From NCBI GenBank assembly GCA_029220445.1, contig GCA_029220445.1_3666.1: DNA of 64,000 bases. One strand, given 5' to 3'. The DNA is from a phage. The notes beneath the pieces are model-generated. The model was not told the origin of the DNA and made no database searches. It saw only the letters and a program-made list of their open reading frames with translations. Made by a program: the position numbers and the translations under genes. The number at the start of each line of letters is the position of its first letter. The stretch's first letter is position 1. Positions 4,937 through 55,473 of this stretch are shown here, piece by piece.

Positions 4937-5236
4937 ATGTTTATCCAGGCTAATAATCTTTATTTCTTTGATGGTCAGATCGTAGATGGTGTGGAAGTGG
5001 AGATCACCGGGTGCCCTGGCGGTCAGGCTATGACTTTTCGGAATAATGCCTTTGATGATTCTCATATCGTTATGAGAATGGAAGTTACGAAGCTGGATGA
5101 CAAGAAAACACTTATTGACTATTCTGTGAAAGATCATCCAGACTACCGCATGATCCATGGTGATTTGTGCACTGTTGACCGTGACAAGGTGGGCGGCATC
5201 GTGATCGCTATTGTGAACGATGTTTTCTCAAACTAA
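4937..5236 (+). CDS. hypothetical early protein (99 aa)
   Basis: ATG 4937 with AAGGAG RBS (track GTG start 4928 lies inside the RBS). Confidence 0.55.
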   Translation: MFIQANNLYFFDGQIVDGVEVEITGCPGGQAMTFRNNAFDDSHIVMRMEVTKLDDKKTLIDYSVKDHPDYRMIHGDLCTVDRDKVGGIVIAIVNDVFSN

Positions 5237-5253
5237 CTTCAGCAGGTGATTTT

Positions 5254-5604
5254 ATGAAAGTCAAACTATATTACCTTAATGAGCTTAACCCCCTTGCCCA
5301 GGTCCGCGCCCTAGCTAATACCTTGATTTGTGAGAAATCTGTATATTGTGTTGAGCTTAACGCCATGCGTGAACGTCTCAAAGGTGGTTACTTTAACATC
5401 CATGCCGCCATCAACGGCCTGAATATGGAATTTATCCGTTTACGTAACAGCCGCCGGAATCTGGCAAGAATGGAACAAGATCCGGCCCACCTTCGTAAGC
5501 TGGTTATTGAAAATCATCTGATGTTTAATGCCGATGGTGATTATTACCATTTTCACCGCAGACGCTGGTACCGTGGCGGCAATACAGACAAGAATGCAAA
5601 ATAA
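5254..5604 (+). CDS. hypothetical early protein (116 aa)
   Basis: ORF closely following previous gene. Confidence 0.55.
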   Translation: MKVKLYYLNELNPLAQVRALANTLICEKSVYCVELNAMRERLKGGYFNIHAAINGLNMEFIRLRNSRRNLARMEQDPAHLRKLVIENHLMFNADGDYYHFHRRRWYRGGNTDKNAK

Positions 5605-52139: not shown

Positions 52140-52213
52140 ACCAGTAAAAACTTAAATATCTGTACTATAAGGATTCGTATGTTTTATGTTCGCTCTGGAA
52201 CAGAGGTTAGTAA

Positions 52214-52297
52214 CTGTCCGTGATACGGACACTACTGTCCGTCACGCGGACACATCTGCCCGTAATACGGACACTAACTGTCCGTGATACGGACACA
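52214..52297. promoter_or_regulatory. array of four palindromic operator-like sites (GTCCGTnAnACGGAC) at ~21-22 bp spacing
   Basis: Four tandem copies read from sequence, each an inverted repeat; followed by AT-rich inverted repeats to ~52440. Confidence 0.65.
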
Positions 52298-52439
52298 TAA
52301 AGAATATAACTAAAATAACTAAATAATAAAAAATAAAAGATCTAGTACTTATGGTACTAAAGTACATATACTTAACTTATGTAGAATATACTAGATCCTA
52401 AGTACCATGTTTTAAATTTATTACTTACTGTAGGTAGTG

Positions 52440-52740
52440 TCGGCCCTTCATTGGCACTCGCCTACGAGGGGCGAGATGCCGGGCCTCCGTAGTGCACACA
52501 TGCAGGTCTGTTAACATGTGTGGGAGCGAAGCGATAGCGCAGGCCAAAGGCCGAGCACTAATGTGGACCACCGACGAAAGCTTGCCAGCGCCGTAAGGAG
52601 TCGGTTGAGAGCCTCCCGCGCGAGTTTGGATAAAGTTTATGTGTGGAAACGGACAATGAGGCCCCTAAATCGCTCCACAGCCATATAAACTATACCAAGT
52701 AAGGCAATCGCACCAGTTTGATAGAAAAGCTCGTTACAAA
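52440..52740 (+). ncRNA. GC-rich, ORF-free island with multiple hairpins; candidate structured RNA or structured 5' leader of ORF 52783
   Basis: Local GC well above neighbouring sequence; stems cacacatg/catgtgtg, ctcgcc/ggcgag, ggcc-aaa-ggcc; no ORF of 60 aa or more on plus strand. Confidence 0.3.
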
Positions 52741-53361: not shown

Positions 53362-53560
53362 GGAGCGCTTAATGAACAACCCGGTAGCAAAGAACTGTAA
53401 TAAGTTCAACAAGTCTGCAATTCACACTGACAGGAAAAAGAGCTGGTCTCCTGACATTGACGAGGAGCTTGAGAGTTACTTTGAAGACCTGGTCACTAAT
53501 GCAGATGAGGTTGCGATTAAAGAATACGCAGACAGGAAGGATAAGGCCGGAATCTGTTGA
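53351..53560 (+). CDS. hypothetical protein (69 aa)
   Basis: Start overlaps upstream stop; TGA stop embedded in next -35. Confidence 0.45.
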   Translation: MNAEERLMNNPVAKNCNKFNKSAIHTDRKKSWSPDIDEELESYFEDLVTNADEVAIKEYADRKDKAGIC

Positions 53561-53585
53561 CAAAAATAGTGTTACCTGATAAGAT
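53557..53585 (+). promoter_or_regulatory. sigma70-like promoter (TTGACA-N17-TAAGAT)
   Basis: Hexamers upstream of ORF 53637. Confidence 0.55.
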
Positions 53586-53636
53586 CTGCAATATGATGTG
53601 ATGCAATTTTAACTTACGAGGTCTACAGGTAATGCT

Positions 53637-53879
53637 ATGTTTAAGGTTAAGCTCGTTTTTCGTTCCATGAATGAGGATTATTTAGAAGATGAAGGTGAAT
53701 TTCGTGCACTGGATGATGCAATAGATTTTGCCAACGACTTAGCTTGTATGAATACAGGTTATGGGCTATGTTGTTGGGATGGTGGTGTTCAGATCGGTGA
53801 TAGCAAGATCTTCTACTTCTACCCTGAGCCTGATAACAAACAAATTAAGTATGTTTTATTTATTTGTGCTTTACAATGA
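53637..53879 (+). CDS. hypothetical protein (80 aa)
   Basis: ORF downstream of promoter. Confidence 0.5.
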   Translation: MFKVKLVFRSMNEDYLEDEGEFRALDDAIDFANDLACMNTGYGLCCWDGGVQIGDSKIFYFYPEPDNKQIKYVLFICALQ

Positions 53880-53939
53880 GGTTGTTTTCGTGTATCATGA
53901 TTAATATCCAATTTAAAGATGAATTTGATGGCTTTATCT

Positions 53940-54165
53940 CTGGATGCTTTGAAACAGGGTTCGGAGAAGGCTGAGTTCCCCTTAGAGGGCTTGATAGTGC
54001 ACCACACTTAAAATGGTAGGGGCAGCCAGCACATGACGATGTGACCCCAGCCAACCTGTAACAAGGTCGAGCCGAAGCGCGGGTAATAGGCCTCTGGTAA
54101 CCCACTTGTTGGGTCTTGCTGGTCCAGGACGCTGGACAAGTCGCAGGGAATACCACCCTGCGGCG
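53940..54165 (+). ncRNA. GC-rich, ORF-free island with nested hairpins (two GACG-loop hairpins); candidate structured RNA
   Basis: Stems cacat-gacg-atgtg, gtccag-gacg-ctggac, caggg-aatacca-ccctg and long-range ggctg/cagcc pairing; preceded by TTTACA-N17-TATCAT promoter-like sequence. Confidence 0.3.
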
Positions 54166-54168
54166 AAC

Positions 54169-54197
54169 TTGACAATCAGTATTTGCTATGATAAAAT
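54169..54197 (+). promoter_or_regulatory. sigma70-like promoter (TTGACA-N17-TAAAAT)
   Basis: Hexamers upstream of ORF 54226. Confidence 0.6.
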
Positions 54198-54225
54198 CCA
54201 CCTATCACGTGATAATGGAGGAAAC

Positions 54226-54564
54226 ATGGCGGATACAACTAAAAAGCGTCGCCGTAGAGGCAGACCTCTGAAAGAGGAGTCCAACGCCATTCAGCTAGAG
54301 AAGAACATCCTTGATATGAAGGAATCTTTTATAGCGATGGTTCCAGAAGCTCACAAAGTTTTAAGAGAGCTGATGTTGGACCCGAAAACCAAACAAAATA
54401 TTCGTCAAAGCATTGCAGAGTATGTTCTTGATAAGGCAGACCGAATGCAGGAAGAATATGATGAGATGTTTGGTGAAGAGGAAGAGGTGGTAGTGGAAGA
54501 GGCTGAAAAACCAGCACCTTTTATGCCATTTACTACAGAAATACAGCCTGTTAGCAATAGCTAA
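54226..54564 (+). CDS. DNA-binding-like protein with basic N-terminus and acidic C-terminus (112 aa); candidate small terminase subunit
   Basis: ATG 54226 with GGAGG RBS; KKRRRRGRP N-terminus; TerS call is from position and composition only. Confidence 0.45.
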   Translation: MADTTKKRRRRGRPLKEESNAIQLEKNILDMKESFIAMVPEAHKVLRELMLDPKTKQNIRQSIAEYVLDKADRMQEEYDEMFGEEEEVVVEEAEKPAPFMPFTTEIQPVSNS

Positions 54565-54660
54565 AATATTTTCTTGACAAACTTTGCTTAACAGTGTAAT
54601 ATTGTAAACATGGTCTCCCACCTTTTCTGGCGGCTAAGGTGTAAAAGAAAGCCACCCAGT

Positions 54661-54735
54661 GCCCTGTTAGCTTAGTGGATAAAGCAGCGGCCTTCTAAGC
54701 CGTTGACACTGGTTCGAGTCCAGTACGGGGTGCCA
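54661..54735 (+). tRNA. tRNA-Arg (anticodon UCU)
   Basis: Manual cloverleaf: acceptor gccctgt/acggggt, anticodon loop cttctaa, T-loop ttcgagt, CCA encoded. Confidence 0.8.
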
Positions 54736-54739
54736 AATT

Positions 54740-54826
54740 GGGGAGTTATCCCGTAGAGGTAGCGGTGTAGACTGTAAATCTATTGTCATTGCGACTCGGG
54801 TGGTTCGACTCCACCACTCCCCACCA
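54740..54826 (+). tRNA. tRNA-Tyr (anticodon GUA), type II with long variable arm
   Basis: Acceptor ggggagt/actcccc, anticodon loop ctgtaaa, T-arm ggtgg-ttcgact-ccacc, CCA encoded. Confidence 0.7.
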
Positions 54827-54940
54827 AATTTATATTTTTAGATGCATAAATAATACAGATAATGGCATTGATATTTATCGTCGTTTATACTAGTCACTAA
54901 CTGCTCGAAAATCAGTGTCATTATCAGTATAATTTATAAA

Positions 54941-55031
54941 GGAGGGTAGGGAGCAATGGTGCTCAAGCGGTCTTGAAAACCGTCCCGTTGAGGATGACTC
55001 GATGATGGTTCGATTCCATTACTCTCCGCCA
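54941..55031 (+). tRNA. tRNA-Ser (anticodon UGA), type II with long variable arm
   Basis: Acceptor ggagggt/actctcc, anticodon loop cttgaaa, T-loop ttcgatt, CCA encoded; position 8 is A (unusual). Confidence 0.65.
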
Positions 55032-55129
55032 CATTGTTGACCTTGTAATTAAGCGAAAGCCGGAAGCAGAACCGGATTATCAAATGTTACAGTCGTCATC
55101 GCCGACTAGCAACATGGTCAACATACTGA

Positions 55130-55226
55130 GCTAGGTAAGCCCTTTGGCAAGGGCGAGGATTTTTAATCCTGAAAATAGACGAGGTAGTCGTTGAATACAT
55201 AGGTGGTTCGATTCCATCACCTAGCA
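55130..55226 (+). tRNA. atypical tRNA-like element (97 nt): normal acceptor, D and T arms, 4-bp anticodon stem with loop tttttaa (UUU, Lys-like) and ~30-nt extra arm; may be a pseudogene
   Basis: Acceptor gctaggt/acctagc perfect; D arm gccc-tttggcaa-gggc; T arm ggtgg-ttcgatt-ccatc; no CCA. Confidence 0.35.
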
Positions 55227-55233
55227 CCTTTTT

Positions 55234-55309
55234 GCTGATGTAGCACAATCGGTAGTGCAATTGATTTGTAATCAATAGGTTGTAGGTTCAAGTCCTGCCA
55301 TCAGCACCA
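55234..55309 (+). tRNA. tRNA-Thr (anticodon UGU)
   Basis: Acceptor gctgatg/catcagc, D stem gcac/gtgc, anticodon arm attga-tttgtaa-tcaat, CCA encoded. Confidence 0.8.
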
Positions 55310-55310
55310 A

Positions 55311-55385
55311 GGCCCTGTAGCTGGAAGGTTCAAGCAAGCGACTCATAATCGCCAGACGGTGGTTCAATTCCACCCAGGGCCACCA
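55311..55385 (+). tRNA. tRNA-Met (anticodon CAU; elongator, or Ile2 if lysidine-modified)
   Basis: Acceptor ggccctg/cagggcc with G1-C72, anticodon loop ctcataa, T arm ggtgg-ttcaatt-ccacc, CCA encoded. Confidence 0.7.
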
Positions 55386-55396
55386 AATAGTAAATA

Positions 55397-55473
55397 CTCC
55401 GCGTAGCTCAGCTTGGTAGAGCGCCTGATTTGGGATCAGGAGGTCGAGTGTTCGAATCACTCCGTGGAGACCA
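55397..55473 (+). tRNA. tRNA-Pro (anticodon UGG)
   Basis: Acceptor ctccgcg/cgtggag (C1-G72 as in tRNA-Pro), anticodon arm cctga-tttggga-tcagg, T-loop ttcgaat, CCA encoded. Confidence 0.8.

Follow-up and report, generated by a model that had tools for sequence, protein, structure and literature searches.

Species 1 and species 2 (rnaC and rnaD), from the tRNA region of phage T4, have been described as RNAs of yet unknown function (PMC9697503). Here we report on an intergenic island rich in guanine and cytosine (GC) in a 64,000-nucleotide (nt) stretch of phage DNA, referred to below as the window, and show that it represents, in rV5-type phages, a family of structured non-coding RNAs that had not been annotated before. 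The window belongs to an rV5-like myovirus (Vequintavirus), and its positions 53600-54600 shared 99-100% identity with many rV5-type records. Each copy of the family is called the element below, and its conserved block of about 45 nt the core. Like species 1 and 2, the element is a small non-tRNA phage RNA, tied to and transcribed with phage tRNA genes, and its function is unknown. However, the two are not homologous: covariance model CM R1 of the core (82 copies, 61 of them distinct, 33-75 bits) found nothing in the T4 region concerned (L080) at an expectation value (E) of ≤ 1, the T4 copy of the core family lies about 5-8 kilobases (kb) away, and the core family spans several unrelated phage groups.

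The Rfam families ROOL and GOLLD likewise comprise structured non-coding RNAs of unknown function that are associated with phage tRNA clusters and often adjoin prophage tRNA genes too, but these are 500-800 nt long and come mainly from Firmicutes and other phyla, whereas the core family has a 45-nt core within a whole RNA of about 100-260 nt. The put RNAs of phage HK022 are cis-acting antiterminator RNAs. Compared by description only, they share with the element a compact multi-hairpin form and a place close behind promoters, with long operons to follow; by contrast, several core-family copies are followed by terminators and new promoters, and the family is absent from Escherichia coli prophages. 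Pseudo-ToxI, an RNA antitoxin mimic of the Pectobacterium phage phiTE, a relative of rV5, was reportedly described by Blower and colleagues in 2012. By analogy, this trans-acting non-coding RNA of a large virulent enterobacterial phage, directed at a host protein, may offer a precedent for an RNA decoy. ToxI-type antitoxins consist of tandem repeats of about 36 nt that are processed by the toxin, whereas the core family is single-copy and shows neither a tandem repeat nor sequence resemblance; no tandem repeat of the type III antitoxin kind was present at 53800-54300.

The element resembles tRNAs in lying in tRNA operons, and in one class of phages (class C below) a long terminal stem closes the module as an acceptor stem does. 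It differs from them in forming a three-way instead of a four-way junction, in having a stem of 4 base pairs (bp) with a 6-nt loop instead of 5 bp with 7 nt, and in lacking a T-loop. A tRNA or tmRNA identity was rejected, as ARAGORN and RF00005 called the neighbouring tRNAs and never the element. When the whole window was searched with the 4,227 covariance models of Rfam 15 at gathering thresholds, only tRNAs were found. At E ≤ 10, Rfam returned nothing on the island (53500-54700) and nothing on the element in T4 or in the Phapecoctavirus array. A literature search of incomplete coverage, which included the literal core sequence, returned no description of the element, and there is only a small chance that the motif has already been noted somewhere. 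A T4 transcriptome study (PMC9697503) made no mention of the element's T4 region.

Results

Distribution of the core across phages

When the island was used as query in a sensitive BLAST search, it matched 119 rV5-like records together with approximately 460 T4-like records, the latter having 44 nt in common with it (about 54047-54090) at 86-88% identity on the gene strand. In T4, denV and vs.8 flank the block, which is on the gene strand, and the T4 element matched 1,114 phage records. In all, about 1,000 T4-like phages carried the core, on the transcribed strand. Copies were gathered by degenerate pattern scans of IMG/VR and metagenome contigs and from annotated records, which yielded more than 60 distinct copies. 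Core identity between unrelated phages was 88-95%. CM R1 gave a single match per locus, except in one T4-like contig with a duplication (L097). The copies were grouped as follows:

Class A: rV5-like phages.
Class A': uncultured rV5 relatives, 117-140 kb in length; the phage collection holds none of them.
Classes B and B': Tevenvirinae, spread over at least six genera; the element is always directly 5' of a vs.8 homologue and the upstream gene varies.
Class C: Phapecoctavirus and contigs of 46-70 kb; the element lies within tRNA arrays.
Class D: Kagunavirus-like siphoviruses such as phage Ivi.
Singletons: L017, L018, L020, L022, L040, L095, L102 and L104.

Comparative folding with related phages had been proposed as a check on the island. 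Structural conservation was found, and it extended beyond related phages to T4-like, Phapecoctavirus, Kagunavirus-like and uncultured phages. Only four phage records covered most of the Ivi element (L072, 2940-3170), and other Kagunavirus-type records matched only the Ivi segment downstream of the core. This presence/absence polymorphism indicated that the RNA gene behaves like an accessory ("moron"-type) module. No copy was found when 5,426 complete E. coli genomes and the prophages in them were searched. Sixteen pattern matches in bacterial genomes were rejected as copies; their number was close to the chance estimate (about 17), they scored 10-22 bits, and they lacked the other half of the motif. 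A single "plasmid" match was also rejected, being a 137.6-kb record in which the whole query was matched at 94% identity.

Structure of the core

All copies shared the consensus NNA-ACCUGUARNAAGGUCNNGC-(loop)-GCGGUAA-UNN (about 45 nt). In the 61 distinct sequences, the bases flanking this block on its 5' and 3' sides paired with each other and covaried. The innermost closing pair was AU in 32 sequences, UA in 10, UG in 8, CG in 7 and GC in 3, with one non-pair; the next pairs were CG/UG/UA and then CG/GC. Overall, 93.8% of cells were paired, and the covariation score was 0.185 compared with 0.062 in shuffles (0/500). The core itself held a 4-bp helix with a 6-nt loop, Pa (ACCU/AGGU; ACCU-GUAAYA-AGGU), and a 2-bp mini-hairpin with a variable loop, Pb (GC...GC). 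Both were invariant in typical copies and were thus uninformative on pairing by themselves. A 177.6-kb T4-like contig (L097) carried two tandem copies of the element upstream of vs.8 (5087-5255, minus strand). In the second, diverged copy (33 bits), Pa had changed from ACCU/AGGU to GCCU/AGGC and Pb from GC/GC to UC/GA. These compensatory changes showed that both inner helices are maintained and that the core is therefore a three-way junction. The most conserved letters of the core were the single-stranded junction strands, C-R-A and GGUAA, and the Pa loop.

The copy in the window showed the core consensus (YYA-ACCUGUARNAAGGUCNNGC-N6-GCGGUAA-URR at 54051-54091), a closing helix of GCCA with U-GGC and a preceding hairpin at 54030-54043, and so belongs to the family. 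The functional centre of the island is this three-way-junction core, which lies between two hairpins with GACG loops. Its parts are:

54050-54091, plus strand: conserved core (CM R1 match at 54042-54100, 58.7 bits, E 1e-18).
54050-54053 with 54087 and 54089-54091: core closing helix, GCCA with U54087, G54089, G54090 and C54091; A54088 is bulged.
54054-54067, plus strand: core Pa hairpin, ACCU-GUAACA-AGGU.
54068-54070, plus strand: core junction CGA.
54071-54080, plus strand: core Pb mini-hairpin, GC-CGAAGC-GC.
54081-54086, plus strand: core junction GGGUAA.

The 5' hairpin and the periphery

A hairpin preceded the core in 19 of 19 representatives. Its sequences were unrelated, with the stems CACAU/AUGUG, CUACG/CGUAG, CCUCAUG/UAUGAGG, UGAAUG/CAUUCA, UGAGUG/CACUCA, UGUGUAU/AUACACA, UGAGGG/CCCUCG and others, and the summed score was higher than in all 300 shuffles. 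Between classes A and A' hairpin 1 covaried (CACAU/AUGUG versus CUACG/CGUAG), and compensation was also seen within a class, where CCUCAU/AUGAGG was replaced by CCUUAU/AUAAGG in L059. In classes with longer linkers, the 5' hairpin was nested inside an additional covarying helix, which was GGGG/CCCC in rV5, GGAAC/GUUCC in class A', GGGAA/UUCCC in T4, and AAAGG/CCUUU or AAAGC/GCUUU in class B'. Everything outside the core and the hairpin that precedes it is lineage-specific decoration. The twin GACG hairpins are such lineage-specific periphery and were found in the rV5-like classes A and A' only; at the position of hairpin 2, class A' had GCUGG-GGACGGA-CCAGC.

Further pairings were considered in this periphery. 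A helix proposed by RNAalifold for classes A and A' (GGCUUG/CGAGCC) was rejected, as natural variants disrupted it without compensation. Pseudoknots between the 5' loop and the 3' tail, and between CUGUA and UACAG or UUACA, showed suggestive covariation in classes C, D and A' and in L017; they did not rise above shuffles and were rejected as well. The CUGG of the 3' linker and a CCAG in the 5' domain could form a candidate pseudoknot that had no statistical support.

Coding potential and the vs.8 gene

The element was always on the transcribed strand, which was also the strand of the surrounding early genes, and its helices carried G-U pairs, which are functional on the transcribed strand only. 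An open reading frame (ORF) across the core was not conserved among homologues. When 36 distinct T4-like variants were compared, in 27 of them a frame running on from the core would meet a stop before the conserved vs.8 start (MRTFLTGPYLS or MKYLTPIYLT), and most of the others are stopped by the UAA of the core itself. The small plus-strand ORFs of the rV5 leader had no start codon in class A'.

T4 annotations run the vs.8 frame upstream across the RNA core (L002 2491-2601, OL964735; AF158101 64859-64896). To judge from the sequences, this N-terminal extension of vs.8 is probably spurious, because the 36 T4-like variants place the start at MRTFLTGPYLS, approximately 60-70 nt past the core. Homologues of vs.8 were confined to T4-likes.

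In T4-likes the core and the ribosome-binding site of vs.8 are separated by a conserved hairpin (L002 2563-2585; L077 about 480-540). Its stem varied (GCCA/UGGC, GCC/GGC, GGCAU/AUGCC) and its loop contained GGA; L077 additionally had AGCA-AGGA-UGCU. These GGA-loop hairpins resemble CsrA binding sites. The idea that the element is a CsrA sponge was rejected, as the 5 GGA in 262 nt of rV5 are about the chance number and only the T4-like 3' hairpins look CsrA-like.

Transcription units and tRNA linkage

The preliminary description had pointed to the proximity of tRNA genes, and the same linkage recurred elsewhere: same-strand tRNA genes lay within about 1 kb of the element in at least nine independent lineages. 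In phiWec190 (class C), the element was located between tRNA-Thr and tRNA-Gly. In L102 it came 33 nt after the last tRNA of ten and was followed by a terminator, with a minimal RNA of about 100-125 nt. Intrinsic terminators were also found 27-60 nt past the core in L017 and L042. The endolysin terminator precedes the element in Ivi and L105; the element then ends in a terminator of its own, and the genes beyond are served by a new promoter. In L042, too, the terminator was followed by a fresh promoter. An own predicted promoter, close to the consensus, was located 155 nt upstream of the core in rV5 and 87 nt upstream in class A' (TTGACA-N17-TATACT), and in both the promoter of the next gene followed 57-82 nt downstream of the core with no intervening terminator.

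The neighbouring protein genes were unrelated between lineages and belonged to PHROGs of unknown function. Downstream of the element were found vs.8, phrog_3330, tRNAs, a structural-like protein of 630 amino acids (aa), or small ORFs after a new promoter. A protein partner next door was rejected, as the neighbours are unrelated and Vs.8 is not similar to the 192-aa rV5 ORF.

In class C (L073 1860-2380; L005, L009, L014, L015, L019, L039 and L048), the element was accompanied by other short structured inserts. The element and these inserts were flanked by the repeated stems AAGAGCAYUG...CAGUGCUCUU, followed by UCCGUUGUG. The class C flanks also repeat UGCUCUUU, which resembles the rrn boxA antitermination signal. 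The repeated stems may serve to punctuate phage tRNA arrays, either for processing or for antitermination.

Organization of the island in the window

Around the island, the region is of early type, with small ORFs that are individually preceded by sigma-70-like promoters, and a tRNA cluster followed about 500 nt downstream. Much of the preliminary description was borne out. The GC content was 0.55-0.57 at 53950-54150 and 0.31-0.45 on the flanks, in keeping with a GC-rich island; the two hairpins said to have identical GACG tetraloops were both present; the promoter-like sequence noted upstream was kept in nine rV5-like sequences; and the island ended, as stated, just before the promoter that precedes the ATG at 54226. 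The claim that only minus-strand ORFs run through the island was incorrect, as plus-strand ORFs of 30-36 aa overlapped the 5' leader. In addition, a TTG-started extension of ORF 54226 began at 54106 on the plus strand. None of these plus-strand frames was kept as an ORF in related classes. The features around the core were:

53870-53898, plus strand: sigma-70-like promoter TTTACA-N17-TATCAT (10/12 match; predicted start near 53905).
53905-53977, plus strand: 5' leader found in rV5-like phages only and absent from class A'; overlaps the small ORFs 53864-53974 and 53919-54011.
53978-54018, plus strand: 5' module common to class A' (CCCCUUAGAGGGCUUGAUAGUGCACCACACU..AAAAUGGUAGG; alignment A2), nearly invariant in sequence.
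53996-54008, plus strand: predicted hairpin AGUG-CACCA-CACU in the 5' module.
54019-54048, plus strand: helix P1, GGGG (54019-54022) with CCCC (54045-54048), enclosing GACG hairpin 1.
54030-54043, plus strand: GACG hairpin 1, CACAU-GACG-AUGUG.
54092-54121, plus strand: variable 3' linker (CUCUGGUAACCCACUUGUUGGGUCUUGCUG), with 10 nt missing in L066.
54122-54137, plus strand: GACG hairpin 2, GUCCAG-GACG-CUGGAC.
54140-54164, plus strand: terminal 9-bp hairpin GUCGCAGGG-AAUACCA-CCCUGCGGC, which lacks a U-tract and was not predicted to be a terminator.
54169-54197, plus strand: next-unit promoter TTGACA-N17-TAAAAT for ORF 54226-54564 (11/12 match, TG extension); 3' limit of the island.
54661-55473: tRNA cluster of seven genes.

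Natural variants left U-G pairs in GACG hairpin 2 (an A-to-G change in L007 and L047) and in the terminal hairpin (a C-to-U change in L051). The strong structure attributed to the island held in its comparative part, since helices covaried across lineages, and failed in its thermodynamic part, since the minimum free energy was no better than in shuffles. The z-score was -1.70 for 281 nt (13/200 shuffles as stable) and -0.83 for 193 nt (41/200), indicating that the case for structure in the island is comparative, not energetic.

Other features of the window and its relatives

A separate GC-rich intergenic island, presumably the first one implied by the preliminary description, was present at 52430-52690 (GC 0.52-0.60) and was matched in BLAST only in 119 rV5-like records, at 85-99.7% identity. 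It was rejected as a paralogue of the core, as CM R1 gave no match on it; Rfam gave none either. At 52205-52300, before the very AT-rich 52300-52420, four tandem hairpin-like repeats GUCCGUnnnnCGGACAC were found, which look like an operator or terminator array. At 55130-55228 ARAGORN called a 99-nt "tRNA-???" with a 4-base anticodon, to which the Rfam tRNA model gave 35.5 bits; the equivalent gene is annotated as tRNA-Lys-TTT in phage Gotham, and the call may represent a tRNA that is unusual or carries an insert. Among database records, the best matches to the window (100% identity, MG0656xx) bear names such as "Campylobacter phage C15/A12a/A116...". They are ordinary rV5-like coliphage genomes, and their host labels look doubtful. 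In L022, a 75-kb contig, a 179-aa ORF at +209 to +746 after the core was Cys/His-rich and resembled an HNH-type homing endonuclease by sequence appearance.

Discussion

The core was conserved across phage groups, its helices covaried, and it was non-coding, placed on the transcribed strand and linked to tRNA genes, which upheld the suggestion in the preliminary description that the island encodes a small structured RNA. We are highly confident that virulent phages of Enterobacterales carry a genuine, conserved family of structured RNAs. As to its action, we propose that the element would be a stable accessory phage RNA acting in trans. A conserved host factor, most plausibly a protein of tRNA/RNA metabolism or a tRNA/RNA-directed defence nuclease, would be bound by the invariant junction and sequestered or redirected during infection. 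With the same 45 nt kept in phages that have no common neighbour genes and whose hosts are all Enterobacterales, interaction with a conserved host component is the simplest explanation, and the stand-alone, terminator-bounded copies point to action in trans. We hold this inferred trans-acting host-factor mechanism tentatively, at somewhat less than even confidence. For the RNA family and the trans-acting mechanism blended into one judgement, our confidence was evenly balanced.

Several observations weigh against the proposal. The folding energy of the island was not better than that of shuffled sequence. The proposed long-range pairings were not significant alone and were absent from L102, L095 and L104. 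No terminator followed the element in rV5, class A' and T4-likes, where it might be a mere part of a longer mRNA. A likeness or antisense relation to the E. coli rrnH operon (16S, 23S, 5S and three tRNAs) was not supported and was rejected: no window reached ≥ 12/14 identity except one at chance level, duplex energies were within or marginally beyond the shuffle range, and the match of GCGGUAAU to the 16S 530 loop was an 8-mer at chance level. Finally, the T4-like element was strictly tied to the 5' side of vs.8 in at least six genera, as a cis-acting leader would show.

This last observation, together with the variable gene upstream of the T4-like element, also favors the alternative that survives best, although we consider it unlikely: that the element acts in cis, as a processing or stability signal, a put-like antitermination RNA by which RNA polymerase would read through long early operons and tRNA arrays or, in T4-likes, a leader of vs.8. 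The position shortly past a promoter in classes A and A', the position inside tRNA arrays in Phapecoctavirus and class C, the UGCUCUUU repeats of the class C flanks (boxA-like) and the conserved GGA-loop hairpin ahead of the vs.8 ribosome-binding site would all suit a cis element. However, the downstream genes are unrelated across lineages, an intrinsic terminator follows the element in L017, L042, L102 and Ivi, with a new promoter in Ivi and L042, and an invariant junction of about 45 nt far exceeds the needs of known processing sites.

A more specific form of the trans-acting host-factor mechanism is that the element is a mobile, RNA-only gene for counter-defence or host takeover, its junction serving as a decoy or inhibitor of a conserved tRNA-directed enzyme or immune nuclease of enterobacteria. 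Such a decoy would account for the retention of the 45 nt, the placement among tRNA genes and the presence or absence of the element between close relatives. Pa displays CUGUAR, the letters of the tRNA-Tyr anticodon loop at positions 32-37, and rV5 and class A' encode tRNA-Arg and tRNA-Tyr shortly downstream of the element; with its 4-bp stem and 6-nt loop, however, Pa is no canonical anticodon arm. We regard this form of the mechanism as improbable.

A riboswitch-like sensor, in which the junction would be the ligand pocket and the flanking helices or terminators the expression platform, is quite improbable. Invariant junction nucleotides combined with covarying helices are typical of aptamers, the element occupies a 5' untranslated position in T4-likes, and terminators follow after 27-60 nt in L017 and L042. 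Against this, the downstream genes have no common function, so that a consistent 5' untranslated placement was not found; the element also stands between tRNA genes in arrays that have no terminator, a separate promoter lies between the element and the next gene in rV5 and class A', no alternative anti-terminator pairing was found, and no Rfam riboswitch was matched.

Strict junction nucleotides with freely varying helices are also the signature of small ribozymes, and scattered contexts that include tRNA arrays requiring processing would fit a new one, for example a self-cleaving ribozyme that cuts polycistronic early or tRNA transcripts. We nevertheless consider a ribozyme very unlikely, since a threshold as loose as E ≤ 10 revealed no resemblance to the ribozyme families of Rfam 15, no conserved position could be named as a candidate for cleavage, and the terminator-bounded stand-alone copies in Ivi and L042 have nothing to process. 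It is least credible of all, and extremely unlikely, that the element is no functional RNA but a DNA-level site (for protein binding, homing or recombination) or a short coding segment spread by recombination between co-infecting phages. In its favor, unrelated phages show an unusually high core identity of 88-95%, the element of L022 is followed by an HNH-type endonuclease ORF, and the reference T4 annotation puts the Vs.8 N-terminus over the core. Against it, the covarying flanking helices include G-U pairs, which would be lost on the other strand, compensatory changes occur within the core of the diverged L097 copy, the element is always on the transcribed strand, the frames are interrupted in 27 of the 36 T4-like variants, and the flanks have no homology able to support recombination between phage families.

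If the RNA family with its proposed trans-acting role is real, T4 and more than 1,000 sequenced coliphages carry an unannotated conserved structured RNA, which the T4 reference record hides under the N-terminal extension of vs.8. A 45-nt junction that is nearly unchanged across myovirus and siphovirus lineages with no other likeness nearby points to a single, strongly constrained interaction with the host. A covariance model would let annotators avoid spurious ORF calls over the region of the element, and identifying its partner could reveal RNA-based host takeover, an anti-defence mechanism, or a new class of ribozyme or riboswitch.

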